In this document: in pieces, positions 11,112 to 63,387 of the stretch | How positions within the stretch are numbered: position 1 is the first letter of the stretch | Layout: each line of letters starts with the position of its first letter | NCBI GenBank assembly: GCA_963713925.1 | Contig: OY970212.1 | Location: forward strand, 448,001-512,000 | Length of the DNA stretch: 64,000 nt | Direction: 5' to 3' | Source of the DNA: an uncultured bacterium | GTDB taxonomy: Bacteria; Babelota; Babeliae; Babelales; Vermiphilaceae | Notes under the pieces: model-generated | Told to the model about the DNA's origin: nothing | Seen by the model: only the letters and a program-made list of their open reading frames with translations | Database searches by the model: none | Translations under genes and position numbers: made by a program

Positions 11112-11193
11112 ACTAGCCGTTCGTGGTGAGCGAAGTTTCGGGCCCCATGCGCAAAGCATGGGCAAAAGTGAAACGAAGTCGAACCATTCGAAC
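11112..11193 (+). repeat. Palindromic element family B (CCGTTCGTGGTGAGCG...GTCGAACCATTCGAAC) carrying a nested family-G hairpin (11140-11162)
   Basis: Near-identical to the reverse complement of 51324-51416; inner GGGCCCCATGC-GCAAA-GCATGGG. Confidence 0.75.
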
Positions 11194-11213
11194 AAAAAAA
11201 ATGGAATCTAGAA

Positions 11214-11798
11214 TTACCATTTTGGCAATTTATCAATCGTGTAACATCCGCGGCAGCGGGCTTGATATGCTTCTTGTGCGCCAATCATAATGATAGGGTC
11301 ATCAAAACGCGCAGGACATCCATTGACTAAACGTTGAGTAAAATGTGCATCTTTGCCACATTCAGTGCAGATCGAGCGCAATTTTGTCACCGAGTCAGCA
11401 AGTGCCATGAGCATCGGCATAACGCCAAAAGGAACGCCGCGAAAATCAAGATCAAGTCCGGCGGCGATCACTTTTTTGCCTGAATGCACAAGCGAAAAAA
11501 TGGTAGCAACAATTGATTGGTCAAAAAATTGCGCCTCATCAATACCGATGACACATGCATTTTTTTCAGCGACAACAGTTTCCAAGATATCAACTGAATC
11601 GATAGGAAGCGCTGCATGTTTTGTGCCGTTGTGTGAAACGACATATTCCGCCGCATATCGATTATCAAGTGACGGTTTAAAAGTGATGACCGTTTGCTTT
11701 GCGATTGCGGCGCGACGCAGCCTGCGCATGAGTTCTTCAGATTTTCCTGAAAACATAGGGCCGCAAATAACTTCCAGTGAACCATTGGTAGTGAGCAT
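11214..11798 (-). CDS. tdk: Thymidine kinase
   Basis: GPMFSGKS P-loop, IDEAQF, GLDLDFRG, C-terminal Zn motif CTEC/CRGC. Confidence 0.96.
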   Translation of the reverse strand: MLTTNGSLEVICGPMFSGKSEELMRRLRRAAIAKQTVITFKPSLDNRYAAEYVVSHNGTKHAALPIDSVDILETVVAEKNACVIGIDEAQFFDQSIVATIFSLVHSGKKVIAAGLDLDFRGVPFGVMPMLMALADSVTKLRSICTECGKDAHFTQRLVNGCPARFDDPIIMIGAQEAYQARCRGCYTIDKLPKW

Positions 11799-11957
11799 GA
11801 AATCCTCCTGTAGTAATCAATTGTCTATTAAATATACAGGATAAATCGGTTCATCTATTTTGCAACACTCATTTTTATTGCTATGAAAATTGCAAATGTT
11901 TAATCTGTTTATGCAGTGATGATTAAACATTTACAATTTTATGAGAAAGATGTTTGT

Positions 11958-13790
11958 ATGAACCGGATTTCAATAATTCTCTGCATACTCTTTTTTCCGC
12001 TTCAATCGGCAGATCTCAAAAAGGAGTTGGTCACAGTTGAATTTGATGACAAAACAACTCTTCAATTAGAAAAAAATGTTTTAACAGCTTCCAATGTTTT
12101 TAAAAATAAGTTTGATCGTTGGGGTGGGCAAACGCTTCAAATACACGATCTATCGCCGAAACTTTTTGGGAAGGTGTTGTATCCTCTCATGCGGTCTGTG
12201 AGTACAGAGGATAAAAAATTACAGAATGAGCAAGATGCTGATAAAGGCATACGTGCTCGTATTAAATTTTTAAGCTTTGATCAAATAAAAGAACTTGCAA
12301 TGGCGGCTGATTATTATGATATTCCGCAACTACTTCCCGTTTTTGTAAATCGATGTGCCGAACTTTTGACTAAACCGTCTTCTTTGAAAGATTTTGCGAT
12401 CGATCCGGAACTCATGCTTGTCAGATTAGACATGCCAACTGATTTGACGAATCAGATAGAAAACTCTCCCATCATAGAAAGTAAAGCGAGACAATTCTTT
12501 TTGCGATCCCCTTTGTATGAGTTGCCGGGCGAACATCTTCCCGTTTTTTCATCTACCGGAAAATTTCTTGCAACAGCATCAACTGATCAGGTATATGTGC
12601 GAAATCCCCAGACGGGTAAGTTGTTATATTCTTCTCCAAAATATGATAACAGGGTATGGGATCTTTCATTTGCATTTGATTCACTATTTATTACAGATCC
12701 TTACGGTCTTGTTAGGATCTGGACTCCTCCAACGGGCAGAGCATTTCCTGCTGCCGTTAATGTTGGGAGCATGGCAAAAGTGCAGAATATTGCATTTGCT
12801 CCCGATGGAACGTCGATGGCTGTTGATAAAGAAAAAGGGAAAATTGAAGTTTTTGGTACACACGGAAAATCGATCCCATATGTCATACCCAATTTGAGTG
12901 AGTATGGTGCGTATACCATTACATTTTCATTAGATGGAAAGAATCTTTTGGTTTTCGGAGATGGGAAAGCCCGATTTTTGAGCCTAAAGACAGGCCACTG
13001 GGATGATTCGCTTAATTTTTCACGTGATCTGCAGAGAATTCAAGTCTCACCCGATCAAAAGCGGTTTGCCGGTTCCTTTTTTAAGCACGATAATGTAAGG
13101 GGGGCCGATCTTTATAGCATGGAGGGACAAATAAGCCATTTAGATAGTAAATTTGGGGGAGGGAGAGATCCTTTTCTTTTGTTTTCTCCCAATGGAAAGA
13201 TAGTGGTTGCAGCTTTCGATTTTGAGACCGTAAAGTTGTATGATCCGCTTACGGGAGATAAGTTACGTGAGATTTCAAGTGACCAAAAAAAACATTTTGA
13301 TGTGAGCGAAATCGCAAATTCTCCTAATGGGGAATTAATTGCCATAGGATATAACAAGGATCCTTACAGGAATTCTGCTGACACAAGAGATGCCACGTGG
13401 AAGATCGACCTTTGGAATGTTCAAGATCGCCGTAATATCAGACTTATCGATACGATAACAGACTTGGAACAAAGCAGAGATAAAATGGCCGTCTATAAGC
13501 TTACATTTTCACCGGACAGTAGGTTGTTAGCAGCAGAAATTGATTCGGATCGTGCCTTCGCGAGGGGTGAAAGATATCAGGACCCGAAAAGCGTTAAAGT
13601 GTGGTTTTTGGGTGGTAAGATCCCGCTTGAATTATCACTGGCTCTTTTGGCCTTGGATGCCACTGTCCCTCGACCAGCCAATTTGAAGCCATTGCGTGAC
13701 TTTGTGAACCATGAGGTCAAACAACTTCCGAATCAATCAATGCGAGAGATATTACAGGCCTTTTTTGATAAAAAATTTGCAAGCGTGTAA
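11958..13790 (+). CDS. Secreted Skp1/BTB-like domain + WD40 beta-propeller protein
   Basis: Signal peptide; Skp1-like V.F.D...L...VL..S..F..., ELAMAADYYDIPQLL; multiple FSPDG/WD blades; C-terminal helices shared with 14708 paralogue. Confidence 0.75.
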   Translation: MNRISIILCILFFPLQSADLKKELVTVEFDDKTTLQLEKNVLTASNVFKNKFDRWGGQTLQIHDLSPKLFGKVLYPLMRSVSTEDKKLQNEQDADKGIRARIKFLSFDQIKELAMAADYYDIPQLLPVFVNRCAELLTKPSSLKDFAIDPELMLVRLDMPTDLTNQIENSPIIESKARQFFLRSPLYELPGEHLPVFSSTGKFLATASTDQVYVRNPQTGKLLYSSPKYDNRVWDLSFAFDSLFITDPYGLVRIWTPPTGRAFPAAVNVGSMAKVQNIAFAPDGTSMAVDKEKGKIEVFGTHGKSIPYVIPNLSEYGAYTITFSLDGKNLLVFGDGKARFLSLKTGHWDDSLNFSRDLQRIQVSPDQKRFAGSFFKHDNVRGADLYSMEGQISHLDSKFGGGRDPFLLFSPNGKIVVAAFDFETVKLYDPLTGDKLREISSDQKKHFDVSEIANSPNGELIAIGYNKDPYRNSADTRDATWKIDLWNVQDRRNIRLIDTITDLEQSRDKMAVYKLTFSPDSRLLAAEIDSDRAFARGERYQDPKSVKVWFLGGKIPLELSLALLALDATVPRPANLKPLRDFVNHEVKQLPNQSMREILQAFFDKKFASV

Positions 13791-13843
13791 GTTGGTATTT
13801 AAAGTTAGATTTTTTTATGTATAAGGCGGGTTTTAGGGGATTT

Positions 13844-14692
13844 ATGGATTCATTAAGTAAATATATTGCGCAATCAGGAGCGGCTTCACGGCGAATGGCT
13901 ACCGAGCTGATCAAAGAAGGAAAAGTAATGGTCAACGGCGTTGTCGTCAAAGAGCCGGGGCATAAGCTGGAGCCGGGAGCGGTAGTTAAAGTCGGCAAAA
14001 AGACGATTGTTCACCAAAAAAAGGTGTATATCGCGATGAACAAGCCAAAGGGATATATCACAACCGTTTCGGATGATAAAAACAGACAAACGGTTATGCA
14101 GCTTTTGGTTGGGGCACCAAAGGTGCGGTTGTATCCGATCGGGAGACTCGATCAAGACACGACCGGGATCTTATTATTCACCAATGACGGCGATTTTGCA
14201 CAAAAGTTGGCTCATCCCAAGTTTGAGGTGGTTAAAGAATATATTGTGACGTTGGATCGAGATTTTTCGGATGCTGATCGTGAACTCTTGTCAAAAACCA
14301 TACATCTCAAAGACGGTGCTGTAAAAGTGGATCATTTTGCGATCATACATCCGCGCAAAAAAAATGTGTTAAAGATTAAAATTCACAGCGGTAAGAACAG
14401 GGTAGTACGCAGAATTTTTGCTCATTTGGGGTATTTTGTGAACGCATTGGAACGAGTTTCATTTGGTGGTCTTTCAAAACGAGCAATTCCTATTGGCCGC
14501 TGGAGATATTTAACGAGCAGCGAAGTGCGTCGGTTGATTGGGTCCCAGGCATCGCCTGCGCATGGCTCAAGTGCAAAAGGGCAAGAGGTTTCAAGCAAGG
14601 CCGATAAACAACCGAAAAAAGCAACTAAGGCACGAGTGCGGACGAAAAAAGTGACCGGCGGCAGAAGAAAGCCAGCTTCAAGATTGCGTTAA
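13844..14692 (+). CDS. rluB: 23S rRNA pseudouridine synthase, RsuA/RluB family with S4 domain
   Basis: S4 domain (SRR...LI.EG.V.VNG), MNKPKG, catalytic GRLD, Lys/Arg-rich tail; exact paralogue name uncertain. Confidence 0.85.
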   Translation: MDSLSKYIAQSGAASRRMATELIKEGKVMVNGVVVKEPGHKLEPGAVVKVGKKTIVHQKKVYIAMNKPKGYITTVSDDKNRQTVMQLLVGAPKVRLYPIGRLDQDTTGILLFTNDGDFAQKLAHPKFEVVKEYIVTLDRDFSDADRELLSKTIHLKDGAVKVDHFAIIHPRKKNVLKIKIHSGKNRVVRRIFAHLGYFVNALERVSFGGLSKRAIPIGRWRYLTSSEVRRLIGSQASPAHGSSAKGQEVSSKADKQPKKATKARVRTKKVTGGRRKPASRLR

Positions 14693-14707
14693 TAGCCGGA
14701 GAACGGA

Positions 14708-16552
14708 ATGAAAAAAATAATACTTATTTTTTTTGTATGTTTGGTAGGTGCGAGCGACAAGCGGGTCAAGATTGAATTGAGCGATAAATCTACTTTTTTG
14801 GCTGACAGCGATGTATTACGGGTTTCCAAAATAATTGGAAACTGGTTGGCTGATTCGAAAGACTATTCAGAGACGATTCCGGTGAATCAGATTTCACCAG
14901 AGCTTTTTAAAAAGGTCTTATATCCTTTAATGCAATATGATCCAAATAAAGATGTCGATAAGCGGCAGGATATTAAAAATCGATATAAGAATCTGAACAT
15001 CAAGAGTCGAAGTTTCGACGCAAGGGCACATACCAATTTGTTGAATTTTGATCAAATTAAAGAGCTGACGTTAGCGTCCGATTATTATGATATTCCGACG
15101 CTGTTGCCGTTATTTTTAAATCGGTGTGTCGAGATTTTGACGTCTGAAGCACATTTAAAACGTTTTTCGCGTGATCCAGAACTATTTATGGCAGGTATGG
15201 ATATTCCCGATCATCTTGCGGATATGATAGCCAATTCACTGTTTATGAAAAATCGGATTCCGTATTTTTTTTCAACAAATCCGATTTATACCAATGACCG
15301 GTTTTCATATTCGATAATTCCCGCGTTTTCCCCTGATAATAATCATATTATTATGGGTAATAGTGAGAGTATCAGTGTTTTGAATTCCTATACCGGAGGA
15401 AAAGAGTATGCTTTTAGCGCAAAAAATGAGGGGCTGGATATAAAAGATGTCACATTTTCAACGGACGGAACTCGTTTTGCAGTCAAGTTAATTCATTTTG
15501 ATAAAACATCACCGAACGATAATGAAACATTCGTTGACATTTTAGATACTCATACCGGTGAGATCTTGGCGAGCTATGACTTTGGAAGAAGAGATGTTAG
15601 CCGCCGAATGCTGGGAATTACGTTTTCTTCCGACGGTAATAAAATTGCTTTTCGATTTCCTCGAGAAATCAATGTTTTTGATATGAACTCTCAGGCAAAA
15701 ATTTTTTCGTCCAATTTACCGAGTTACTCGAAGGATGCCGCATTCTCTCCCGATTCCAAGAGGCTTGTTGTAGCATTGGATGACACGCTGTTTAAAATTT
15801 TTGATTTCAATGGCGGTCAGGTTGAAGCGGATATGCCGAAAAAAAATAAATCAGAGATAGCCAGGATTAATAAAATAAGATTTGATTCCACGGGAAAACA
15901 TGTTGTCGGCTTGTCCAGAGGTGGGTGCTTTGTGTGGGATTCGCAAACGGGTCAATTGGATTGGTCGAAACCCTATCCAAAAGCCCCTGCGATACGTAAT
16001 TATCCATCAGGTGGCTACTTTTTCCCAGATGGATCAAAGATTGTTGCGGTAAGCGAGGAAGGTCTTTTTATTGCGTCCGTGTTTCCAAAAAGTCCATGGC
16101 AAGAAATTACTGAAAGCAAGCTGCCATACAAATATCCTAATACGCCGACTGCAATATCATTTTCATTCGATGGGAAGTTGCTGGCGGCAGGAAGTGATAT
16201 CGGTATTATAAAGCTTTGGAATACTAAAACAAATGAGCTGTTACGTACAATTGACAATCGCATTGAAGACCGTCCTTTGGATACTATCGAAATGTCTCCC
16301 TTTGGCGATTTGCTTGTTACTGTGTCGGGAAATCGTGTAATTCGTATGTGGCAGACCTTTATCAATCCGAAGCTATCACTTGAAACCGAGCTAACGTTTT
16401 TGGCATTGAGCGATAAGAAGTTGTTACCGAGAGATGTGGAGCAGTTACGTCAATTTGCAGATAAAAGTCTTGAGTCTATAAAAGATGAAGCAACAAAGAA
16501 AATATTGCGCGGTTATTTTGATGGAAGGTTTAAGGAGGTTGGCAAAAAGTAA
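14708..16552 (+). CDS. Secreted Skp1/BTB-like domain + WD40 beta-propeller protein (paralogue)
   Basis: VKIELSDKSTFLADSDVLRVSKIIGNWL, IPVNQISPELFKKVL, ELTLASDYYDIPTLL; WD40 blades (LAAGSDIGIIKLWN). Confidence 0.78.
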   Translation: MKKIILIFFVCLVGASDKRVKIELSDKSTFLADSDVLRVSKIIGNWLADSKDYSETIPVNQISPELFKKVLYPLMQYDPNKDVDKRQDIKNRYKNLNIKSRSFDARAHTNLLNFDQIKELTLASDYYDIPTLLPLFLNRCVEILTSEAHLKRFSRDPELFMAGMDIPDHLADMIANSLFMKNRIPYFFSTNPIYTNDRFSYSIIPAFSPDNNHIIMGNSESISVLNSYTGGKEYAFSAKNEGLDIKDVTFSTDGTRFAVKLIHFDKTSPNDNETFVDILDTHTGEILASYDFGRRDVSRRMLGITFSSDGNKIAFRFPREINVFDMNSQAKIFSSNLPSYSKDAAFSPDSKRLVVALDDTLFKIFDFNGGQVEADMPKKNKSEIARINKIRFDSTGKHVVGLSRGGCFVWDSQTGQLDWSKPYPKAPAIRNYPSGGYFFPDGSKIVAVSEEGLFIASVFPKSPWQEITESKLPYKYPNTPTAISFSFDGKLLAAGSDIGIIKLWNTKTNELLRTIDNRIEDRPLDTIEMSPFGDLLVTVSGNRVIRMWQTFINPKLSLETELTFLALSDKKLLPRDVEQLRQFADKSLESIKDEATKKILRGYFDGRFKEVGKK

Positions 16553-16593
16553 TGTCGTGAAATATCATCAGCGTGAGAAAAAGAAGGAACCGC

Positions 16594-18777
16594 ATGAAAA
16601 TCGTACGAATCATTTTGTGTGTGTCTATAATAATATCAAGTGTAATGAAAGCCCAAGAATACCATGGAGCATTTATGAGCAACGATCAAGTTGCCGGATA
16701 TCGTGCCGGTGAAATTTTTATCATTAAAAATGAATCGATAAAAAAACTGTTTGATTCGTTACAGCCGGAAGAACGGGTTGTTTGTTATTATTTGTATCGA
16801 GCACTATTGCCCGGAAATCGTATTGCTGCTGATCAGCTTCATCGACATTCGCTTTTAATTCAGGATATCTGCATTGCCTTGCTTGAGCAGAAGGAAATCT
16901 TGCGTAAATCGAAACAATTAAAACAGGGTGCCGATTTCGTTTCACAGCTTGAGATATACCTCACCTATCTGTTGGTTAATCATAGTCAGTATTTTGCCAA
17001 GGAACACACTAATGAAAAACGTACGCCGCAGCGATTAAAGTTACATGAACTGACCGTTGAAAATGTGACTGAGAGTTTAAAAATTATCGGAAGATCAGAT
17101 TTGCTAACCTTTCTTGCCCAGGTGAAGCAATCATGGTTTGATCAAGGTTATGAACCGACCAATTGCGTTGCCAATAGCATTAATGAAAGCTCAGTCAATT
17201 TTTACGCCCCCGAATTTACCGATGCGCATTTTGATGCGTTATCCGCTCGCGATCAATCATACTTGAATGCATATTATGCTGTTGATCGCATCGAAAAATA
17301 TAAAATCGACGGAAAATATAGCAAAGAGCTTTCGGTGGCGGCCTATTGGTTGACACAGGCGCGGGATTATGCAAAACAATATTCTGACGTATTTGATCAG
17401 CCATTTGTTGATAGTTTGACCTATTTGATTGATTTTCTTCACTCGGGTGACGAGGAAGATTTTCGTAAACATGCGATCACATGGATCAAAACAAATAACA
17501 GAATTGATTATACGTTTGGATTTATTGAGAATTATCAAGACCCTAAAGAATTTCGTGGGATGTTTGAAGCCGAAGTGACGATAAAATCAATAGAGTTGGA
17601 TAAGCTCAATAAAATTCTGCCCCATTTGGAAGCGCAATTGCCATTCAAGCTTGAACACAAAAGAGAACTTGGACAAAATTCAACGATGAATGCTTCTATA
17701 AACAGCATTGTCTATGCGTCGGGAGAGATGGGCCCAGCCGCAGTTTTGGCGGCCTATTGTTTGCCTAATTATGAAGACATTCGTGCGAAATATGGATCAA
17801 AGCAAATTATTTATGATTCACAAAAAGGATTGGCGGCTTATTTGAATCCCAAAATGTATCGCAAGCTCTTTTTTTCTCCTGAACGTGCGCGCTTTTTAGA
17901 TGAATATGACCAATCCGATAAGTTGAACTCACAATTCTGGAATACGCATTGCATTTTGCATGAAACGCTTGGCCACGGGAGCGGCAAACTTGATGAACAC
18001 ACCTTCGTTGACGGAGATCCGGCGGAGATTGATGGCCATTCATACAGAATCGGACAAACAGTTCCGCTCACTGAAAGCATGGCCAATCTGTTACTCAAAG
18101 GTGATGCACAAGCTTTGGAAGAATTGCGCGCTGAGATCATTGCCTTGTACACAAGTATTGCTCATTTTGATGAACTGGATGCAATTGGTTTGTATGGCGA
18201 ATGGCCCAAAGTTATCGGAAAAGAGAAATGTATTGAATGGCTCATTTTTGGCATGGCAAACACAGGATTGCGCAGATTGTTATCTCAACCGATTGATACG
18301 TATGAAATTGCCGGTGCACATGCGCAGGCAAATACCATTATTCTGAATTATTTGATTGATGCGGGTGGGCTGACACTTGCTCAAAAAAAGGTCGAATATG
18401 AGCAAAAAGCACACGAAGTTTTCTGCATTGATCGAATCGATGCGCACAAAGCGATACAAGCAGTGAATGATCTGGTTGTTCTCGTGCAGACAATAAAATC
18501 AACTGCGGACGGTGTTGGATTTAGAGCCCTCAAAGATCAATATGGTGCTCGGGTGCGCTCGATGGTGCAGGTGAAATTGTTGCAAGACAACTTTAAATCA
18601 GTCGTCGGCGACGTGCAAATGCTTGCACATATTTTCCCTGAGCTTGTGCCCGTTGTTGAACATGAAGGAAAACTCATTGATTGCGCTCTTCACTGGCAGG
18701 ACTCGCTTTTAGAGCATTATAATAAGGTAAAGCCTCTGATTCTCTCAATCGAAAAACCTAAACATTCGCATCAATAA
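16594..18777 (+). CDS. Peptidase M49 / dipeptidyl peptidase III
   Basis: Hexapeptide HETLGH zinc motif, EELRAE second motif, GFIENYQDP, AHAQA; N-terminal signal peptide. Confidence 0.9.
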   Translation: MKIVRIILCVSIIISSVMKAQEYHGAFMSNDQVAGYRAGEIFIIKNESIKKLFDSLQPEERVVCYYLYRALLPGNRIAADQLHRHSLLIQDICIALLEQKEILRKSKQLKQGADFVSQLEIYLTYLLVNHSQYFAKEHTNEKRTPQRLKLHELTVENVTESLKIIGRSDLLTFLAQVKQSWFDQGYEPTNCVANSINESSVNFYAPEFTDAHFDALSARDQSYLNAYYAVDRIEKYKIDGKYSKELSVAAYWLTQARDYAKQYSDVFDQPFVDSLTYLIDFLHSGDEEDFRKHAITWIKTNNRIDYTFGFIENYQDPKEFRGMFEAEVTIKSIELDKLNKILPHLEAQLPFKLEHKRELGQNSTMNASINSIVYASGEMGPAAVLAAYCLPNYEDIRAKYGSKQIIYDSQKGLAAYLNPKMYRKLFFSPERARFLDEYDQSDKLNSQFWNTHCILHETLGHGSGKLDEHTFVDGDPAEIDGHSYRIGQTVPLTESMANLLLKGDAQALEELRAEIIALYTSIAHFDELDAIGLYGEWPKVIGKEKCIEWLIFGMANTGLRRLLSQPIDTYEIAGAHAQANTIILNYLIDAGGLTLAQKKVEYEQKAHEVFCIDRIDAHKAIQAVNDLVVLVQTIKSTADGVGFRALKDQYGARVRSMVQVKLLQDNFKSVVGDVQMLAHIFPELVPVVEHEGKLIDCALHWQDSLLEHYNKVKPLILSIEKPKHSHQ

Positions 18778-21975: not shown

Positions 21976-21992
21976 GTAATTTCCTTTTTTAT

Positions 21993-28133: not shown

Positions 28134-28219
28134 GGCGAGATTCCCGAGCGGTCAAAGGGGACGGACTGTAAATCCGTTGGCTTATGTCTTCGAAGGTTCG
28201 AATCCTTCTCTCGCCACCA
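28134..28219 (+). tRNA. tRNA-Tyr(GTA)
   Basis: GGCGAGA/TCTCGCC acceptor stem, anticodon loop CTGTAAA, long variable arm, GGTTCGAATCC, encoded CCA. Confidence 0.96.
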
Positions 28220-28356
28220 GGCTTTGCCCAAAGGGCTACGCCTGGCGCAGCCAGTGGTTAAGGTAGAATAGCTAATATTGATAGCAGGAATGCGAAGCCT
28301 GTCCGGCGAAGTTTATGAGGTTTTACTTCGGAGTAAGAACGTAGCCTGGACTGGAA
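28220..28356 (+). repeat. tRNA-trailer inverted doublet of family-A palindromes, copy 1
   Basis: Aligns over ~140 nt with 28637-28783. Confidence 0.85.
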
Positions 28357-28560: not shown

Positions 28561-28636
28561 GCGGGAATAGCTCAATTGGTAGAGCGGCAGCCTTCCAAGC
28601 TGTAGGTTGCGGGTTCGAGTCCCGTTTCCCGCTCCA
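28561..28636 (+). tRNA. tRNA-Gly(TCC)
   Basis: GCGGGAA/TTCCCGC acceptor stem, loop CTTCCAA, TTCGAG T-loop, CCA. Confidence 0.96.
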
Positions 28637-28783
28637 GGCTTCACCCATAAAGGGTTACGCCTGGCGCAGCCAGTTGCTAAGGTAGAGCGGTCTATATTGA
28701 TAGAACAAGCGTGAAGCCTGTCCGGCGAAGTTTAAAGCTTCCTGAGGTCTTACTTCGGAGTAAGAACGTAGCCCGGACTGGAA
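28637..28783 (+). repeat. tRNA-trailer inverted doublet of family-A palindromes, copy 2
   Basis: Aligns with 28220-28356. Confidence 0.85.
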
Positions 28784-28811
28784 CAACAACCCGCTCATTT
28801 CCTTTAGAAAT

Positions 28812-28909
28812 GGCTGGGCAGGCCAGCAAAAAAGGTTTTGAAATTTTGTTAATATTGAGAGTGCAATAGCGTAGGCTGTCACGCCATAGCTCTTTGAGCG
28901 ACGGTTGAC
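28812..28909 (+). repeat. Family-A doublet homologous to the tRNA-Thr(TGT) trailer but with no tRNA upstream
   Basis: GGCTGGGCAGGCCAGCAAAAAAGGTTTTGA matches 29176-29205; right arm GGCTGTCACGCCATAGC. Confidence 0.7.
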
Positions 28910-29050: not shown

Positions 29051-29126
29051 GCCGGTGTAGCTCAGCTGGTAGAGCAACTGATTTGTAATCAGTAGGTCGT
29101 TGGTTCAAGTCCAATCACCGGCTCCA
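29051..29126 (+). tRNA. tRNA-Thr(TGT)
   Basis: GCCGGTG/CACCGGC acceptor stem, CTGAT-TTGTAA..ATCAG anticodon arm, CCA. Confidence 0.96.
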
Positions 29127-29312
29127 GCCTTCGCTATATCACCCAAGCAGTACTGCTTGGGTCCGATAGAGCTTCGGCTGGGCAGGCCAGCAAAAAAGAT
29201 TTTGAGATATTATCGATTGCTGGCAGTAAAAAGCGATGGCTGGGTCCCAAAATGTAGTGAAACGAAATTTTGGGTTATATGCTGTCTCGCCATGGCCTTG
29301 GCGGACGCGGAC
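29127..29312 (+). repeat. tRNA-trailer family-A doublet with two nested family-G hairpins (29142-29164, 29242-29274)
   Basis: CCAGCC...GGCTGG stem using the tRNA CCA; perfect inner palindrome CCCAAGCAGTACTGCTTGGG. Confidence 0.75.
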
Positions 29313-41370: not shown

Positions 41371-41463
41371 CCCCATGCTTTGTATGGGGATTAATTAGGG
41401 TCCCAAGCGGCCTGTCACGCCAGAGCCTAAATGGCAAAGGCGGAAAATGAAATGGAGCTTGGG
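41371..41463 (+). repeat. Family-G hairpin (41371-41389) plus family-G element (41398-41463) containing a nested family-A element (41409-41444)
   Basis: GGGTCCCAAGC[GGCCTGTCACGCCAGAGCC..GGCAAAGGCGGA]AAATGAAATGGAGCTTGGG. Confidence 0.75.
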
Positions 41464-41502
41464 TGAAAATAATGTTAAAACCATAATGAGGTTTATATTC
41501 AA

Positions 41503-51168: not shown

Positions 51169-51323
51169 AAAAGTTGTATCGCGATTTTCAAATAAAACAT
51201 CTCCAGTTTTCGCCATTCGAATGGATTTTGTCCATGCTTACGCTGCGCTCACATTGGCTTCTTATCGGGATCCCAAAATAGCACGATCTACTGTGTCAAA
51301 CTGTCCGAATGTTAAATTTTGTC

Positions 51324-51541
51324 CGTTCGAATGGATTCGACTGCGTTTATACCCCAATTTCGCTTACGCTCTATCGGGGACCCCAAAATTAACTCCGCTC
51401 ATCACGAACGGCTAGTTGCTTTCACCCGCTACGAGCGGAACTTTTTTAGGTTATATTCATTTATTCACTCTACAGTCAAACAAAAAACTTCACCCGCGCT
51501 CGTGGTGAGCGCAATGTAATGGAGTCGAATCCATTCGAACG
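51324..51541. mobile_element. MITE/REPIN-like inverted doublet of family-B elements; left arm carries a nested family-G element (51352-51384)
   Basis: Perfect 19-bp terminal inverted repeat CGTTCGAATGGATTCGACT (51324-51342 / 51523-51541) and 12/14 inner IR; degenerate extra arm near 51215. Confidence 0.7.
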
Positions 51542-55116: not shown

Positions 55117-55146
55117 TTGTCCCGACATAGCCTTGGCGACGTCGGA
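55117..55146 (+). repeat. Solo family-A palindrome
   Basis: TTGTCCCGACATAGCCTTGGCGACGTCGGA has the same bulged architecture as 63310-63342. Confidence 0.6.
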
Positions 55147-56565: not shown

Positions 56566-56976
56566 TTATTTAACAGGGAGAAGGTCCTCCAAGTCGGTGA
56601 TTTTCATGATAAGTTTTGTTCGAACCTTTTTGCCAGTTGTAAGATATCGAACGGTTCCATCATAGTCGCAAATGAGCCTTCCTCGGGTCGGGTTGGGCGT
56701 GTCTTTGTAATAGCAATAGAGCATAAGAGTTCCGTCCCAATCGTAGACCGATTCCCTATATATTTTTGCATTCGCGGTGAGATATGGGGCAGCCGACACA
56801 TTACGATTTCGTTCACGATGTTGCTCCTCGCCGCTCTTTACGGGGAGCGCGGCATATTTGTCGGCGCATCCTGTTTTGATAGCGGCTATGTGCGGCAGCC
56901 TTCGGCGCGGCGTTTGGGCACAAAAAATTTTTCCCCCCAGCAATAGAAAGAATGAAAAAAGAATAATACGCTTCAT
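56566..56976 (-). CDS. Secreted hypothetical protein
   Basis: GAGG RBS; MKRIILFSFFLLLGGKIFCA signal. Confidence 0.55.
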   Translation of the reverse strand: MKRIILFSFFLLLGGKIFCAQTPRRRLPHIAAIKTGCADKYAALPVKSGEEQHRERNRNVSAAPYLTANAKIYRESVYDWDGTLMLYCYYKDTPNPTRGRLICDYDGTVRYLTTGKKVRTKLIMKITDLEDLLPVK

Positions 56977-56988
56977 TACTATCCTCTC

Positions 56989-57357
56989 TTACTCATTTAT
57001 ATGCCAGCTCTTCAAAGATCCGTCAGGTATGCCATTGTATCCACGATTGTCTTGCGACTTTGTGTTCGGATTGTTGTGTTGAGTTTGAGCAAATGATCGA
57101 TTTACCGAGCTATCGAGTAATACTACTATTGCATCATCATCGCATGAATGTACTGACTGATACAAGTTTTCCAGAGATCCCTCATAGTTAATGAACAAAA
57201 CTTTTTGATTATTATAAAAAAAATATTTTCCCGGCATAAAAGGAGCGGGCTTGGGTTGTTGGGAACTGGGTTCAATGGGAGGTGTTTGGTGTTGGTCCAT
57301 GCAGAGAACACTTTGGGCAGCAGAACAGATCAACAAGGAAATAATATGTTTTATCAT
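56989..57357 (-). CDS. Secreted hypothetical protein
   Basis: AGGAG RBS; MIKHIISLLICSAAQSVLCMD signal. Confidence 0.55.
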   Translation of the reverse strand: MIKHIISLLICSAAQSVLCMDQHQTPPIEPSSQQPKPAPFMPGKYFFYNNQKVLFINYEGSLENLYQSVHSCDDDAIVVLLDSSVNRSFAQTQHNNPNTKSQDNRGYNGIPDGSLKSWHINE

Positions 57358-57428
57358 TTTGAAACTCCTGTATAGGTGTGTTTTTAATGCCATATAGTGT
57401 ATCGACAAAGCGTTCAAATTCAAGAAAT

Positions 57429-57464
57429 AAAAAAGAGGAGACTCATACGAGTATCTCCTCTTTT
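57429..57464 (-). terminator. Rho-independent terminator
   Basis: AAAAGAGGAGA..CTC-ATAC-GAG..TCTCCTCTTTT long stem with A run. Confidence 0.75.
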
Positions 57465-57489
57465 AAATATTCGCTTGCGACTTTAAAAA

Positions 57490-58689
57490 TTACTTTTGTC
57501 CCCACAAGTTCAACGGATTAAGCTTACTCAGCGAGCTCAGCAAACTGGTGGCTTGTGCAGGTACAGTTGGTATGACAATGTCTGTTTTTTCAGGCAATGG
57601 TGGCCGTATTAAAAACTGACCTTGATTTGGTCCACCCGCAACAATTGCCCGTCCGGAAGCGCTTACGTTGTAATACATGACGCCCTTCATGATGTGGGCG
57701 ATCGGAGTATCTTGTTCAAGTAAGGTGTTCCATATGTTGATGCCGTCCATACCGACGCCGATAACGTATTGAGTTCCGATTCCCGAAAAGCAACAATCTT
57801 CCATCGAGTAAAACCAATTTTTATAAATATTTGATGGAACTGCATTGAGGCTTTTGAGGCAATTTCCCGTTTGCAGATCCCAAACGCGCACGTTCAAATC
57901 GGCGCAACTCACTGCTCGGGGGACGCCGTTTGTGAGCTTAACGCTTGAGGCATGGGAGGTGTGTCCTTTCAGTGTCGGCAAAAAAGATTGTATCGACGGA
58001 TCATATATTTGTATGTTGTGAGCATCATCGGTGAATGCGGCTTTGATCCATCCGGAATAATGTAAAAGAGACAAAAATTGTGCTTGAGTCGGGATATCGG
58101 TTGTCTTTTCCCTTTTGTGAGAAACGATTGCTATGCCGTCTTGCGATTTTGTCGCATAATGGAGCGTGTTTTCGGGGTCGAAAAGAGCAAAGGATCTTCC
58201 AATATTTTTGGTGGTTATTTTTTCATTCGTGATTGGTTGTACTGAACCTTGCGACCATTCATAGAGCAAAATACCAAGGGTATGTTCCTTGTCTTGCGGG
58301 AGAGAGACTGCGGCATGGAGCTTATCGTTCGAAAGGGTAACGTCCCACTGTTCTTTGTTGAAGATCATACCTTCATCAACATCGATATCAGCCCATCGAA
58401 TAGGATTTCCTATTCCGAATTTGCATATATTGAGGCGATTTCCGACCCAAGCGATAAAATGATTTTCATTGCATGCGCTTGGTCCGCTATTTATGCGATT
58501 GTCCTGATAAGGCCACGGTATCACAGCATCGGAATACGTTGTATCAGCAATCAACTGTGGAAGCATATTTTCATGGAGCTTCTTTCCGCGGGACGCTTGA
58601 GGCGTCATATCCGTTTGATTGTCTGCACACATAACAGATGCACCATAAAACGACAGGAACAGTATTAATCTTGTTTTCAAAAACTTCAT
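57490..58689 (-). CDS. Secreted WD40-repeat protein, paralogue 1
   Basis: LKGHTSHASSV...VRVWDLQTGNCLKSL canonical WD40; signal peptide. Confidence 0.8.
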   Translation of the reverse strand: MKFLKTRLILFLSFYGASVMCADNQTDMTPQASRGKKLHENMLPQLIADTTYSDAVIPWPYQDNRINSGPSACNENHFIAWVGNRLNICKFGIGNPIRWADIDVDEGMIFNKEQWDVTLSNDKLHAAVSLPQDKEHTLGILLYEWSQGSVQPITNEKITTKNIGRSFALFDPENTLHYATKSQDGIAIVSHKREKTTDIPTQAQFLSLLHYSGWIKAAFTDDAHNIQIYDPSIQSFLPTLKGHTSHASSVKLTNGVPRAVSCADLNVRVWDLQTGNCLKSLNAVPSNIYKNWFYSMEDCCFSGIGTQYVIGVGMDGINIWNTLLEQDTPIAHIMKGVMYYNVSASGRAIVAGGPNQGQFLIRPPLPEKTDIVIPTVPAQATSLLSSLSKLNPLNLWGQK

Positions 58690-58722
58690 AGAATATCCTC
58701 TTTTATCAAGATGATTTTAAAA

Positions 58723-60015
58723 TTATTTTTGTCCTCTCAACCAACTCAACCAACCGGCTTTTTGTGTCGCGCTCGCTTTATCGGCTTCTTGAAGTTGATA
58801 AAGCGAATTGGTCGGGTTAGTTTGTTTTGTATTCGCCGGTATGGTCTCACTTGTTTGCTCAGTATTTGATTTTTCTTTCGGAATCCAAAATTGTTCCTGG
58901 TTTCCTCCGCCTGCAGCGATTAATCTGCCCTGTGCACACCCATTTTGAAATGCTCTTCCGGGGAAAAAATGATATGCCGGCGTATCATTGCTGGAACGTG
59001 TATCCCACACATTAACGCCGTCAAATCCGAATCCTACAATATATTCACTATTGTCACCGGCAAAGCAGCAATCCGTCGTTAAACACGGGGTATGATCGCC
59101 TAATACATTCGACGAGATCGCTTTAAAACTTCTCAGACATGTCCCGGTCGAAAGGTCCCACAGGCGCGTGTTTGTAAAAGAAGAACTTATAATGCGAGAT
59201 GCATCATTGGGGTGTGTGTTTACACGTACAACCGGTTCAGTGTGGCCTTGCAATGGAAGCAAGAATGAGCGCGTGTATTGATTGTAAATCCATACATTAT
59301 AGTCTGTGTCATAAGTGAACGCGGCGGTTATTTTTTCTTTTTGCTTTATGAGAGAAAGAAAGAATGCACTTGTTGCAATAGAGGTTCTTTCTTTTGTGTC
59401 ATGATTAACGAGATCAAATCCGTTTTCTCCCTTTTCCGCGTAATGTAATTGGTTTTGCGCATCAAATATAATTGAAGGTGTTGCCACCCCGATAATATTG
59501 TCCTTTCGACCGGACCATGAACCCGGCCATTTGATTTCAAATGTTTCTACAATCTTTCTTTCGTTTTCTGCCAGTGAACAAATAGAAACATCGACGGCTT
59601 CTCCGGATTCGGCAAAGCCACCATATGCGCAAACGGCAGCTCTTTTACTGTCTGGCGACAAAGCAGCTTGCCAATTGCTTCTGATCCATATTGGAGTCGT
59701 ACCCATGTCGAAATATATTTCTTTGCGTGCCGGGCCGGTTCCCCATTCACATGTCTGTAAGTGATGTCCAGTCCACTTAAGAAAATAGGATCCATTGTAT
59801 GAGCTTGGCCCGCAATTGGTAAAATCCAGTTGATATGGCCATGGAATTATGGCGTCGGTCGCACTATTTGCCATGGCCGATAGGATCTTTTTTTGATGAT
59901 CCATTTTTTTTGCAAGAGCATCGGATGCAGCTTTCGTGTCTGCGCTGTCTGCGCATATGGCTAATGAGGAAGAAAATAGTAGGCAGAGTATGAAACTTCT
60001 TTTTGAATAGTTCAT
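58723..60015 (-). CDS. Secreted WD40-repeat protein, paralogue 2
   Basis: LQGHTEPV...TRLWDLSTGTCLRSF; shares IPWPYQ, DCCF, DG.N.W and GQK end with paralogue 1. Confidence 0.8.
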   Translation of the reverse strand: MNYSKRSFILCLLFSSSLAICADSADTKAASDALAKKMDHQKKILSAMANSATDAIIPWPYQLDFTNCGPSSYNGSYFLKWTGHHLQTCEWGTGPARKEIYFDMGTTPIWIRSNWQAALSPDSKRAAVCAYGGFAESGEAVDVSICSLAENERKIVETFEIKWPGSWSGRKDNIIGVATPSIIFDAQNQLHYAEKGENGFDLVNHDTKERTSIATSAFFLSLIKQKEKITAAFTYDTDYNVWIYNQYTRSFLLPLQGHTEPVVRVNTHPNDASRIISSSFTNTRLWDLSTGTCLRSFKAISSNVLGDHTPCLTTDCCFAGDNSEYIVGFGFDGVNVWDTRSSNDTPAYHFFPGRAFQNGCAQGRLIAAGGGNQEQFWIPKEKSNTEQTSETIPANTKQTNPTNSLYQLQEADKASATQKAGWLSWLRGQK

Positions 60016-60126
60016 GACGAGTCCTCTTTTTAAGAAATGGAAAAGTTGTCATGAGTCTAGCAAAAAAGATTTTTGGGGCAACATGAACATGCTCCCCCAG
60101 TCGAGTGTAAATCGATTTGGAATTTC

Positions 60127-61230
60127 TTATTTTTCCCAATTGCGCAAGAAATCAATCAGCTGATCAAGACCACCTTCGGTTATTATCGAGCTGATGACAA
60201 ATGGCTCATATTTTTCAAACGCAGGGATTTGAAACTCAATCATTGAAACCTTATCTGCTTTGTTAAACACATAAAGCATTGGTTTATCAACATTCAAATC
60301 TTCCAAGATGTCGTCAACGACTTCTATATGGTTTGGCCAGTTTGGGTCTGACACATCAATGATCTGAATGAGCAGATGAGCATATTGAAGTTCAGAAAGA
60401 GTAGATTTGAAAGCTTCAATCAAGTGGTGGGGCAATTGTTGCACAAATCCAACGGTGTCGGAAATGAGGGCTTTCTTTTTGCCATCAATAAACAGTTCGC
60501 GGGTTGTCGTATCAAGAGTTGCAAAGAGCTTATCTTCTGCCAAAACATTACTTTTGGTCAGAGCATTTAAAATTGATGATTTGCCTGCGTTGGTGTATCC
60601 GATTAAGCAAAAGAGCGGGATTTCACTCGATAAGCGCTTTTTACGCTGCGTTTCACGAGCTTGAGCAAGCTTTTCTAGCTGTCGCTTGAGTTTGAGAATG
60701 GTGTTCTCAATATGTCGCGTATCTTTTTCTTTTTGCGTTTCTCCCGGGCCTTTGCTTCCGATGCGTCCGGCTTGTTGGGAGAGATATTGCCCACGTCCGG
60801 CAAGACGGGTTTTGGAGTATTGGAGCATGGCTATTTCAACCTGAATTTTACCTTCGGCTGAATGTGCACCTTTTTCAAAAATTTCCAAGATCAAACGAGT
60901 TCGATCAAATATTCTGCAGTTTAAGAAATCGCGCAAGTTGCGTTCTTGGTTGCTGGTCAGTTGTTCGGAGATAATAACTTCTTCAACATTATTAGTATCG
61001 CAAAACTCTTTGAGCTCTTGAAGTTTGCCATGGGTGATAAAGTAAGCACTATCTATTTCGCGCAACTTAATAAACTGCTCAAAGTTTGGCGTGACGCCGT
61101 TTGAGGAGATGAGATTAGCAAACTCTTCAAGGTATGAATCGATGTTTTTGTTTGGGTTAAAAGGGGTTTGAATGCCCAATGCTAAGATGACAGGTTCATG
61201 ATGTTCGTAAAAACGTGGTTCTTGAGCCAT
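60127..61230 (-). CDS. hflX: Ribosome-splitting GTPase HflX
   Basis: GPGETQKE, GYTNAGKSS, LFATLDTT, DTVGF, NKAD. Confidence 0.97.
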   Translation of the reverse strand: MAQEPRFYEHHEPVILALGIQTPFNPNKNIDSYLEEFANLISSNGVTPNFEQFIKLREIDSAYFITHGKLQELKEFCDTNNVEEVIISEQLTSNQERNLRDFLNCRIFDRTRLILEIFEKGAHSAEGKIQVEIAMLQYSKTRLAGRGQYLSQQAGRIGSKGPGETQKEKDTRHIENTILKLKRQLEKLAQARETQRKKRLSSEIPLFCLIGYTNAGKSSILNALTKSNVLAEDKLFATLDTTTRELFIDGKKKALISDTVGFVQQLPHHLIEAFKSTLSELQYAHLLIQIIDVSDPNWPNHIEVVDDILEDLNVDKPMLYVFNKADKVSMIEFQIPAFEKYEPFVISSIITEGGLDQLIDFLRNWEK

Positions 61231-61320
61231 ACTGATTTTTCTTTAATTTTTGATCAACTTTTTCAACTATCTATGCTATAGTAACATAAAATTTCAAAAA
61301 ACCTTACTATTAAAAAAGAC

Positions 61321-62652
61321 ATGTTTGATTTTATTTCTCAAAAAATGGCGGCCCTTTTTGAAGGGTTCCGCGGCAATTCTATTACGAACGCCCAATTAGA
61401 CACCTTTTTACAGGGGCTGCGGGAAACATTGCTTGAGGCAGATGTCCCCTATCAGCTGGCCGTTGAATTCACTGAGCAGTTGCGCACTGAGCTTTCTGGG
61501 CAAAAAATTACCCAATCATTGAAAGCAAACGAATATTTGGCAAAAGCAGTGTATGACAAGCTCGTCGGCTTTTTATCAGGTGGCAGCAAGTCGGTTGGCT
61601 TTAACCTTCCCATCCCTTCAACCATGATGGTTCTTGGACTGCAAGGTTCGGGTAAAACAACCTCGCTTGGCAAACTTGCCCATTGGATTATGCAAGAGGC
61701 GCAAGCTAAGGGTAAAAAAAGAAGAATATTGCTTGCTTCAGTTGACTACTATCGTCCGGCAGCAATCGACCAACTTGAAATCGTTGCCAAGCAGGCAGGG
61801 GTTGATTTTTATCGAGCCCAAGCAACCGATCCAGTTGTCGCCGCGCGAGAAATATATAAAAAATTCCAAACCGACTCCTATGAATATTTGATGCTCGATA
61901 CCGCCGGCCGCTTGCACGTTGATAATGCGATGTTGCAAGAGCTTCGTGAGATTGAGACGATCATTAAACCAAAATATAAGCTCATTGTTCTGGACTCAAT
62001 GACCGGTCAAGAATCGTTAGCCATTGGTAAGGCCTTTGATCAAGCGATTGGCTTTGACGGGGCCCTGATGAGCAAAATGGATTCTGACACTCGCGGAGGA
62101 GCCGTCTTTTCGTTTCGTTATTCCTTAAAAAAGCCTATTGTTTTTGTGGGAATGGGTGAAAAGGTTGCCGATCTTGATCCGTTTAATGCTGAACGCATGG
62201 CAGGGCGCATGCTGGGCATGGGGGATATTGTTACCCTGGCTGAAAAGGCAAAGCAAAAAATTACCCAGGCAGAACAGGATTCGGCGCTCAAATCGTTGCA
62301 AAGCGGTCAATTTACCCTCAAAGATTTTGCTGACCAGCTTGAAATGATGAACCGACTGGGTTCATTAAGCCAAATAGCAGGTTATTTACCAGCTATGGGG
62401 GGCATGCGATTGAACTCAGATCAGCTTGAAAAAGGTGAGCAAGAACTTAAAAAATGTAAGGTTATCATCAACTCAATGACCCCGAAAGAGCGCATTATGC
62501 CGGCTATTCTTGATGGATCTCGCAAGAAAAGAGTCGCAAACGGTGCTGGGGTGAGTGTAGAAGATGTAAATCTTTTACTTTCTCGGTTTGAAGAAAGTAA
62601 GCAATATGTTAAACTGTTTAAAAAACTCGGAAAATTTAATTTCTTTAAATAA
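61321..62652 (+). CDS. ffh: Signal recognition particle protein
   Basis: LLEADV, GLQGSGKTT, DTAGR, RMLGMGD, M domain INSMTPKER. Confidence 0.97.
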   Translation: MFDFISQKMAALFEGFRGNSITNAQLDTFLQGLRETLLEADVPYQLAVEFTEQLRTELSGQKITQSLKANEYLAKAVYDKLVGFLSGGSKSVGFNLPIPSTMMVLGLQGSGKTTSLGKLAHWIMQEAQAKGKKRRILLASVDYYRPAAIDQLEIVAKQAGVDFYRAQATDPVVAAREIYKKFQTDSYEYLMLDTAGRLHVDNAMLQELREIETIIKPKYKLIVLDSMTGQESLAIGKAFDQAIGFDGALMSKMDSDTRGGAVFSFRYSLKKPIVFVGMGEKVADLDPFNAERMAGRMLGMGDIVTLAEKAKQKITQAEQDSALKSLQSGQFTLKDFADQLEMMNRLGSLSQIAGYLPAMGGMRLNSDQLEKGEQELKKCKVIINSMTPKERIMPAILDGSRKKRVANGAGVSVEDVNLLLSRFEESKQYVKLFKKLGKFNFFK

Positions 62653-62664
62653 TATACCACTATA

Positions 62665-62686
62665 GGGTCCCATACTTTTGTATGGG
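62665..62686 (+). repeat. Solo family-G hairpin
   Basis: GGGTCCCATAC-TTTT-GTATGGG. Confidence 0.65.
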
Positions 62687-62705
62687 TAGATTATAAGGAT
62701 GTTAC

Positions 62706-62951
62706 ATGGCGGTTAAGATTCGCTTGGCCCGTATCGGCAAAAAAAATGCTCCTTTCTATCGTATCGTTGCTATCGACAGCAGAAAAGCACGTAACGGCGC
62801 ATTTTTAGAAAATCTCGGCACTTATGACCCAATCAAGGAAACCTTGGTACAATATCATGCTGATAGAGTGCAAGATTGGATTTCCAAAGGCGCTATTGCT
62901 TCTGATGCAGTTAAAAAATTGCAAAAGATGCATAAATCAGTAGCAGCGTAA
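62706..62951 (+). CDS. rpsP: 30S ribosomal protein S16
   Basis: MAVKIRLAR.G, PFYRIVA.DSR, LGTYDP. Confidence 0.97.
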   Translation: MAVKIRLARIGKKNAPFYRIVAIDSRKARNGAFLENLGTYDPIKETLVQYHADRVQDWISKGAIASDAVKKLQKMHKSVAA

Positions 62952-63045
62952 TACGGGGTCCCCACGGTTGTGGGGGTATAAATACGGGGTCCCCGCAGTG
63001 TATGTGGGGTTTAATAAGGGTCCCCGCATGACGTGCGGGGTGTAA
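62950..63045 (+). repeat. Three tandem family-G hairpin units
   Basis: AATA(C/A)GGG(G)TCCCC-RC..GYGGGG units of ~30-33 nt with variable loops. Confidence 0.8.
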
Positions 63046-63050
63046 TAAAT

Positions 63051-63281
63051 ATGCTAAAAGATGTTCTAGAATTCATGGTTAAATCACTGGTCAACGAGCC
63101 TGAAAAAGTGACGATTGATCAAGTTGATACTGATGAAAAAATAAACATTTCCGTTGCCGTCGATCAACAAGATATTGGCAAGGTAATTGGTAAGGAAGGC
63201 AGAACTATCAAGGCGCTTCGTGTGTATGTCGCTTCTCTTGGTTCTCCCGAACGACCGGTCTATATTGAGTTAAAAAAATAG
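63051..63281 (+). CDS. khpA: KH-domain RNA-binding protein KhpA
   Basis: DIGKVIGKEGRTIKALR; position after rpsP. Confidence 0.92.
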   Translation: MLKDVLEFMVKSLVNEPEKVTIDQVDTDEKINISVAVDQQDIGKVIGKEGRTIKALRVYVASLGSPERPVYIELKK

Positions 63282-63298
63282 TTTTCATACTTTGTTAT

Positions 63299-63387
63299 GG
63301 GCCCCAAATGGCCTGTCGCGCCATAGCTTTAGCGAAGGCGGAAGCGTACTGCTTCGTTGAAGCTTCGTAGTATAGGCGTAATTTGGG
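63299..63387 (+). repeat. Family-G element containing two nested family-A-type palindromes (63310-63342, 63347-63372)
   Basis: GGGCCCCAAAT[GGCCTGTCGCGCCATAGCTTTAGCGAAGGCGGA]AGCG[TACTGCTTCGTTGAAGCTTCGTAGTA]TAGGCGTAATTTGGG. Confidence 0.75.

Follow-up and report, generated by a model that had tools for sequence, protein, structure and literature searches.

We examined a stretch of 64,000 nucleotides (the window), which corresponds to bases 448001-512000 of the single 1,318,721-bp contig (40.8% GC, 95.75% complete) of a Candidatus Babelota genome, referred to here as G000. Babelota have a host-dependent lifestyle, and this genome is the sole representative of its genus in our comparison set. The window contains at least 25 copies of three families of short palindromic repeats, named A, B, and G (3 B, 11 G, and 11 A, from our catalogue and reading by eye). 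Copies are found at the ends of tRNA genes, in the tdk-radA spacer, and elsewhere, and several lie inside one another (Table 1). An earlier note, made from the sequence alone, had counted at least 20 such palindromes and described them as nested. Each position that it gave does hold the elements named. Insertions in the host loop and on the host strand comprise two of G in B (11140-11162, 51352-51384), one of G in A (29142-29164), and two of A in G (41409-41444, 63311-63342). Two details differ. The G at 29242-29274 is not in an A loop but in the 5' arm, just before the A at 29282-29310. The G at 63299-63387 does host two A copies, but the second (63345-63378) has the opposite orientation, which is rare.

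Copies were identified using regular expressions and stack parsers, with Markov control genomes. We chose these over covariance models because guests interrupt the loops of their hosts. For the whole genome, the stack parser returned 224 G copies, 84 B copies, and 44 copies of a further family, C. Equivalent searches of three 4th-order Markov control genomes gave 4-7 G, 0 B, and 0-1 A. A structural finder for A made 90 intergenic matches, compared to 8-11 in controls. We removed 14 A-finder matches by hand (alternative pairings or chance) and three G parses (genome 225738, 384666, and 820777, the latter being the only opposite-strand G-in-G case, between tandem copies). The final set has 221 G, 91 A, and 84 B copies, of which 184, 85, and 81, respectively, are intergenic. 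The suggestion that these are non-autonomous repeats, with filled and empty versions, is supported. Note that copies are missing where gene calls overlap (e.g. the A at window 41409 and its G host), so counts of nested copies are lower bounds. Gene calls place 33 G, 6 A, and 3 B inside predicted genes, where about 5-7 G are expected by chance. Copies on the leading strand number 12 of 25 for A, 37 of 80 for B, and 95 of 155 for G. These counts show no strong replication-strand bias.

Nesting is, overall, approximately 3-fold more frequent than chance predicts. In total, 53 copies lie inside another; 51 are intergenic, compared to 17.1 expected under uniform placement. Considering only distinct junctions, A in G is 13-fold enriched (11 versus 0.85, P = 2e-9). 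The excess is 4.7-fold for G in B, 3.2-fold for G in A, 2.6-fold for G in G, 4.3-fold for A in A, and 1.3-fold for A in B. No credible case of B as a guest was found genome-wide, and the B-in-G parse at genome 225738 was discarded as a chance pairing. Of the 53 nestings, 51 have guest and host on the same strand, as do 33 of the 35 that are distinct (P = 4e-8). A strand bias of the whole genome does not account for this, because B copies sit side by side in both orientations and replichore bias is weak. Relative to B, G takes only three placements: within it and on the same strand (22 copies), by the 5' foot and on the opposite strand (10 copies), and by the 3' foot with the strand shared (3 copies). 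At all such placements, the strand of G reads AA. The dinucleotides AA and TT occur 147 and 22 times in B loops, and 378 and 131 times in G loops. By eye, approximately 17 of 26 short A copies are in G loops; a strict test gives 9 of 27, compared to 0.6% of random points, and all are on the same strand. Composites are copied as units and grow stepwise. For example, there is a B holding G (genome 905246), a B holding G that in turn holds G (726322), and there are composites with three and four G copies (626847 and 1224845).

The earlier note proposed that enzymes acting on the repeats are encoded outside the window, and listed GIY-YIG genes among the candidates. Elsewhere in the genome we found four stand-alone GIY-YIG genes, plus a 417-amino-acid match, and each of the four is bracketed by one repeat type. 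Two encode UPF0213-like proteins (L002, genome 353976-354260, and L003, 141602-141934) and are bracketed by inverted B copies. A third (L001, 80 amino acids, genome 1102679-1102921) is downstream of a tRNA and has A copies on its flanks. The suggestion was therefore right for A and B. The fourth gene (L004, genome 104330-104823) is flanked by family C. A similar arrangement is published for Ssn nucleases and their NTS/SRM hairpins. In that case, a small single-domain GIY-YIG gene is bracketed by inverted hairpin repeats, many solo copies exist, and the hairpins are oriented with a 5' tag (Chenal et al. 2025, PMC11893778). The same layout was found for A and B but not for G.

To place these proteins, we built a tree from 53 Babelota GIY-YIG proteins (17 of 70 loci gave no parsed protein). 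There are three well-supported clades, with bootstrap values not fully settled. Flanks were then tabulated by clade for 74 Babelota proteins, being those of 96 loci that entered the table. Flanks of B type accompany 20 of 26 UPF0213-like proteins, and 0 of 41 and 0 of 7 proteins in the other clades. Those of A type accompany 31 of 41 proteins in the 80-amino-acid clade (27 with a tRNA end upstream), 0 of 26 UPF0213-like proteins, and 1 of 7 in the Ssn clade. SRM-like flanks were detected for 6 of 7 Ssn clade members and for none elsewhere. Controls gave 1-3 matches in 240. Note that flank patterns were tuned after the flanks had been viewed, so rates within clades are optimistic and the zeros across clades are stronger evidence. 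We conclude that repeat family and nuclease clade pair one-to-one for A and B.

The catalytic Tyr, Tyr-Gly, Arg, and Glu positions are conserved in the small GIY-YIG proteins, for which NCBIfam has no family. Of proteins with solved structures, L002 is closest to UPF0213 members, namely 1ZG2 (E = 7e-17) and 1YWL (7e-13), while L001 and L004 reach only 2e-6. We take cd10456 to be the UPF0213 label and cd10449 to be SLX1-like. As a stand-in query for Ssn, an NTS-flanked 94-amino-acid homologue from Neisseria gonorrhoeae was compared to the G000 proteome. With the blastp threshold of the Ssn paper, E < 1e-10 over at least 75% of the length, L003 (4e-7), L002 (3e-6), and L001 (0.1) fall short, while L004 passes (7e-28, 91% cover). 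Similarly, the SRM motif, allowing up to 2 mismatches, is found in 0 of 37 A, 0 of 81 B, 1 of 186 G, and 0 of 44 C copies; the same check of the Neisseria locus gave 6 exact matches. Hence, family C with L004 is of the Ssn/SRM type, unlike the partners of A and B, and the A and B clades extend the published nuclease-hairpin system. L004 is a true Ssn homologue but has Arg where others hold the His of the HN/HQ/HR motif. The C copies are mostly inverted doublets, in a 150-200-bp element with AGAGCTTAT-type terminal inverted repeats. [quoted passage not shown]

Both cassettes have gene-less derivatives, namely B doublets and tRNA-end A cassettes. The segment at window 11043-11193 is a G-filled copy of one arm of L003. 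Here, the insert is 33 nt relative to the empty cassette arm, including a 3-nt filler at 11137-11139. A pair at genome 315957 has kept both inner flanks and lost the gene. The upstream module of L001 has seven long copies elsewhere, including those at window 28217 and 28634, and an A copy overlaps the 3' CCA of 18 of 39 tRNA/tmRNA genes. Among 84 B copies there are 13 tail-to-tail and 17 head-to-head neighbouring pairs; inverted doublets are rare for G. The stem of B-type repeats, just 3 bp, covaries (TGG/CCA, TCC/GGA, and CCC/GGG), and the B pattern occurs in 11 of 41 genomes. The orthologous tdk-radA spacers of 24 relatives contain no A, B, or G, so positions are not conserved; SRM-type repeats, judged by eye, are in 2 of the 24. 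Separately, a UPF0213-like cassette in genome G256 (L106/L284, G256:C3:141500-142200) has G at the B-type 5' foot of both inverted arms. This adds one 5'-foot case with a 9-bp duplication. The duplication is on one side only, which suggests that one arm was copied from the other.

Family G is widespread. Its pattern was matched in 26 of 261 genomes of Babelota, where some single matches are near the control level, and in diverse metagenomic contigs of 31-65% GC, with a hairpin formed at 63 of 80 loci. In metagenomes, 14 of 48 distinct G copies are within 60 nt of another repeat type, compared to 24 of 318 control windows (motifs were picked after viewing the data). Viral contigs gave 16 matches, mostly within open reading frames (ORFs), which look like chance. 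Several metagenomic contigs have one G variant in a CCCCTCTCC-type repeat, with an ATTAAG duplication (L140, L145, L156, L167, L172, L198, and L200). Back-to-back G doublets, sharing a palindromic GGGG-N-CCCC core, are also apparent (L134, L157, L183, L189, L194, and genome 713916-713965). No GIY-YIG clade is tied to G. In G000 there is no match to DUF559 or reverse transcriptase, searching for named families rather than with a full Pfam scan of the proteome. Five G-rich genomes contain no PDDEXK_3, four-helix-bundle, or HNH match, and DDE_Tnp_1 is in one of the five. No gene family recurs beside G in 100 loci, and no relationship links the 15 genes that have G copies to either side. We conclude that G is an orphan family, with no partner enzyme found. 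Though widespread, G has no description in the literature that we searched in full text.

Filled and empty pairs define the G insert as running from GGNCCC to GGGT(A/G)(A/T). The junction often has a direct, in many cases imperfect, duplication, commonly of 4-8 bp and ranging up to 10 bp, which tends to start AA beside the TAA(A) tail of G. The 5' side has 0-5 filler bases. For 113 non-tandem G copies, we found 20 direct 5-mer duplications compared to 8.6, and 11 6-mer duplications compared to 2.3; neither figure was reached in 400 shuffles. For 42 metagenomic copies the excess is weaker, 5-mers numbering 6 compared to 1.5. Junctions of A, judged by eye, deviate from blunt by no more than about 1 bp. 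Cases in B loops had suggested a guide, or inverted-duplication, relation between G flanks. We rejected this, since inverted matches equal the null for k = 3-6 (n = 146).

All three families carry motifs on one strand. The sequence YGNAR occurs on the element and opposite strands, respectively, 185 and 18 times for G, 107 and 5 times for B, and 32 and 5 times for A. Furthermore, 46 of 183 distinct G copies have a (GNA)2 zipper architecture, in which stem, GNA, pairs, loop, pairs, GNA, and stem follow one another. The opposite strand has none, shuffles give approximately 3, and the stems covary. In other genomes, 22 of 84 G copies have this architecture, compared to 0 for the opposite strand. 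Note that standard folding energies do not score GNA motifs. Mini-hairpins of GCGNAGC and GCGNNAGC are reported to be far more stable as DNA than RNA (melting temperatures of 76.5 and 39 °C; PMC13037366). In addition, SsnA is described as binding and cutting its hairpin only as single-stranded DNA, and on one strand only (PMC11893778). Hence, the DNA-stable GNA motifs, on one strand of each family, point to single-stranded DNA.

By analogy to SsnA, A and B are likely spread by their own small GIY-YIG nucleases, as single-stranded DNA. Each nuclease would recognise its own hairpin and cut beside it. The T-ended 3' end of the target may then anneal to the A tail of G and prime copying. Host repair synthesis would copy the hairpin into the nick and rejoin a few bases back, leaving the duplication and filler. 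Orphan G probably rides on nicks made at the hairpins of other families. Their loops could be hot spots because A-rich sequence would be exposed there, single-stranded, on one strand, and the nesting excess may also owe something to copies surviving where they do no harm. We consider this account, of hairpin recognition, nick-primed copying by host repair, and G riding on nicks, somewhat better than an even bet. The anatomy of the repeats, their pairing with nuclease clades, the strand polarity, and the junctions are themselves observed, and the modest preference concerns the explanation built on them. More tentatively, and with a chance clearly below even, bacterial genomes may hold a community of 20-60-nt single-stranded DNA hairpin replicators. 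Several tiny GIY-YIG clades (Ssn, UPF0213-like, and tRNA-linked) would mobilise one hairpin each, by nick-primed copying from a DNA template that needs neither transposase nor reverse transcriptase, and G would be an enzyme-less, cross-phylum hyperparasite of their nicks.

Several observations weigh against the nick-copying account. With a strict search, clear duplications were found for only 22 of 113 G copies, so most have none, and the 4-mer test in metagenomes is not significant (6 versus 4.4). The motif YGAA precedes solo G with weak enrichment (17 of 84 versus 11%, p = 0.02), and not significantly for 61 copies from other genomes; we therefore rejected YGAA as a sufficient target. Just 1 of 74 GIY-YIG genes has G beside it, next to a B-type arm, and genome G244 has 37 G-pattern matches without a small GIY-YIG or Y1 match. 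Guests on the opposite strand do occur (two parsed, both A in A, and that seen by eye at 63345-63378). The need for AA alone, without structure recognition, could explain the polarity of G. Sequencing reads gave no strain-level filled and empty alleles and no joints at elements, but are uninformative (one run, share 0.11, in which low-depth contigs are identical where aligned and so not independent). The A-in-G pattern is in 1 of 261 Babelota genomes, which is this one, and G near B gave one weak match among 5 B-rich relatives. Hence, dense nesting reflects the heavy load of this genome. The earlier note went further, proposing that the families target each other's hairpins. This is only partly true. 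While A favours G loops, and G favours B, A, and G, just 37 of approximately 184 intergenic G copies are nested. For 97 non-nested G copies, the rebuilt empty sites do not exceed random spacers in structure (p = 0.22), so we rejected G as a general hairpin seeker for such copies. As noted above, B is never a guest.

The main rival to nick-primed copying is blind insertion, at any AA site, followed by survival in existing junk (safe sites) and multiplication of composites. We give this a minority chance, albeit a substantial one. It fits G well. Thus, most copies are solo at unstructured sites, the excess of G in B, A, and G is only 2.6- to 4.7-fold, and the AA asymmetry of B loops predicts G polarity. 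Moreover, several nested copies are replicas of one event, since 17 G-in-B copies have 8 junction types. Conversely, A in G is explained poorly. The 13-fold enrichment is for distinct events, and short A copies in G loops all have the host strand though both AA and TT are available. The inert interiors of the MITE-like element and of a long composite, family D (3.2 kb together), have no G directly, compared to about 1.8 expected, with three G copies there within A guests; these are small numbers. Another possibility is that composites are built mainly by recombination, gene conversion, or template switching at stalled forks, between repeats already present and without a nuclease dedicated to the task. 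Tandem G arrays, variable fillers, imperfect duplications, the same G on both arms of the G256 cassette, and the abundance of G where no candidate enzyme was found would all follow. Strict pairing of repeat to nuclease clade would not, and neither would the many distinct insertion points in unrelated sequence, including coding genes. We regard this explanation as improbable.

The earlier note raised mobilisation by HUH enzymes, such as the transposases (RAYTs) associated with repetitive extragenic palindromes (REPs). In this scenario, a RAYT or IS200-type transposase would move the repeats by guide pairing at the hairpin foot, and GIY-YIG genes would be cargo. Inverted B pairs (30 among 84 copies) do resemble REPINs, and the near-blunt insertion of A is like that of HUH products. 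However, the genome gave a single Y1 match, covering 30 positions, to a fragment of a truncated IS200-type transposase (L006, genome 735700-736050). It lies behind an IS200-like left-end hairpin, with unrelated flanks that are not A, B, or G, and Y1 matches are absent from 9 of 12 G-rich relatives. The GTAG tag is absent, the hairpin feet reading YTGTC-like for A (loosely resembling CGTC), GTTCG for B, and GGNCCC for G. Target duplications are frequent for G, while HUH insertion makes none, and guide-like complementarity of G flanks is at expectation (5-mers, 5 versus 4.9). Clade-specific pairing with GIY-YIG genes also speaks against HUH. This idea is already largely refuted and has, in our view, little chance of being right. 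Slightly less probable still is that the repeats are RNA elements maintained by the host (terminators, mRNA stabilisers, or processing signals), with nesting a tolerated elaboration of loops. Consistent with this, top-level G copies between co-oriented genes are sense in 67 cases and antisense in 38, often about 20 nt before a start codon, A copies sit on tRNA/tmRNA 3' ends, and GNRA loops are also RNA motifs. Yet B, A, and C have no sense bias, positions are not conserved in relatives, the distribution is patchy, and the GNA motifs are DNA-stable. Apart from tRNAs, Rfam gave no match, whether in the window (gathering score) or for 10 loci with E as high as 0.5.

The nick-copying account can be compared with known systems. 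In target-primed insertion by non-LTR (long terminal repeat) and Penelope-like elements, an A-rich 3' tail meets an A-starting duplication of variable length, with an untidy 5' junction, and Penelope elements use a GIY-YIG endonuclease. Here, in contrast, elements have just 20-40 nt, the genome has no reverse transcriptase match, and the template suggested by the motifs is DNA. GTAG and CGTC REPs, REPINs, and RAYTs share with our families oriented palindromes of 20-60 nt, inverted doublets, and non-autonomous spread (Di Nocera et al. 2013, PMC3733652; Quentin et al. 2018, PMC6006769). For certain REP families (T. roseum GTAG-23 and H. neapolitanus CGTC-1), insertion in other palindromes is also reported (PMC3733652). 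The differences are that there is no RAYT or GTAG tag here, partners are GIY-YIG genes, nesting of A and G is reciprocal and strand-polar, and G makes target duplications. Rickettsia palindromic elements (RPEs) and prokaryotic MITEs are likewise described as selfish palindromes, some within coding genes, and REPs as insertion targets of insertion sequence (IS) elements (PMC10969869, PMC3184786); our families, too, occupy a small genome from a lineage that depends on hosts. Unlike these, A, B, and G have no IS-type terminal inverted repeats, are far shorter than most MITEs, and in two cases have candidate enzymes. The duplications of G are variable and imperfect, and A is near-blunt; the separate 14-copy host of C does look like a MITE. 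About 30 G and A copies within predicted genes are RPE-like (genome 145970, 147008, 269171-269243, 330114, 589632, 631362, 939951, 992569, 1240802, 1257257, and others).

Published already, therefore, are the nuclease-hairpin partnership for Ssn and REPs within other palindromes. In the parts consulted, the Ssn paper makes no mention of nesting, of target duplications, or of orphan families, and its authors suggest an IS-like origin (PMC11893778). Our searches of the full-text literature gave no account of A, B, or G, of partners that are UPF0213-like or linked to tRNAs, or of nesting that is reciprocal and polar; subscription papers and the Ssn supplements may list such repeats. For two nuclease clades so far unstudied, one of them UPF0213-like, our data suggest which substrates to consider. 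The prediction is of new sequence-specific cutters of single-stranded DNA beyond Ssn. The junction rules (duplication, tail, filler, and strand polarity), and filled and empty pairs within one genome, bear on how palindromes without a transposase spread, such as CGTC REPs and RPE-like repeats.

Table 1. Repeat elements and derivatives in the window (positions are those of the window).
Feature	Position	Strand	Basis or remarks
Outer flank shared with right arm of B-bracketed GIY-YIG cassette (genome 141602-142059)	11043..11118	+	83.5% identity over 79 nt, colinear with B copy; gene-less remnant, tdk-radA spacer
Family B hairpin hosting a G	11117..11193	+	catalogue
Family G in B loop	11140..11165	+	filled/empty alignments; AAGT duplicated (11133-11136, 11166-11169)
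Gene-less A-type cassette at tRNA-Tyr 3' end: A(-) overlapping CCA, spacer, A(+)	28217..28355	.	76% identity to L001 upstream cassette
Family G with (GNA)2 loop	28399..28428	-	catalogue
Gene-less A-type cassette at tRNA-Gly 3' end	28634..28785	.	79% identity to L001 upstream cassette
Family A, short form, degenerate	28876..28908	+	catalogue
Family A overlapping tRNA-Thr CCA end, hosting a G	29124..29188	-	catalogue, A finder
Family G in A loop, same strand	29142..29164	-	catalogue
Family G in 5' arm of an A copy	29242..29279	+	sequence; imperfect duplication TGGCTG/TGCTG
Family A, short form	29282..29310	+	A-family sequence survey
Family G hosting an A, tRNA-Val 3' spacer	41398..41468	+	catalogue and by eye
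Family A in G loop, same strand, near-blunt junction	41409..41444	+	catalogue and by eye
Family B hosting a G; head-to-head pair with B 51496-51541	51323..51411	-	catalogue
Family G in B loop, same strand	51352..51384	-	filled/empty alignment, catalogue
Empty family B	51496..51541	+	catalogue
Empty family A, short form	55117..55146	+	catalogue, A finder
Empty family G, flanks TATAG/TATAA	62665..62686	+	catalogue
Tandem array of three G copies	62955..63040	+	catalogue
Family G hosting two A-type copies	63299..63392	+	catalogue and by eye
Family A in G, same strand	63311..63342	+	catalogue
A-type variant in G, opposite strand (polarity exception)	63345..63378	-	sequence, by eye; parser missed

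Some further observations concern repeats in the window and beyond. Upstream of the B at 51323-51411, on the minus strand at window 51200-51260, are a degenerate B-like remnant and a G-like palindrome. Many G copies, genome-wide, end approximately 15-22 nt before a start codon on the same strand (e.g. window 62686-62705 and 41463-41502). In such cases, the G tail reads TATAAT-like ahead of the ribosome-binding site, and a promoter effect, or targeting of open complexes, is possible. Family D is a long multi-hairpin composite with 13 core copies and no partner gene found (e.g. genome 299050-299470, 401400-401800, 977690-978160, and 1144570-1144900); five copies have A in the loop. Finally, window 5733-8333 (minus strand) encodes an 866-amino-acid protein, made of repeats of approximately 47 and 96 amino acids and without an NCBIfam match, which is flanked by short paralogous ORFs (window 4009-5676 and 8426-8956).

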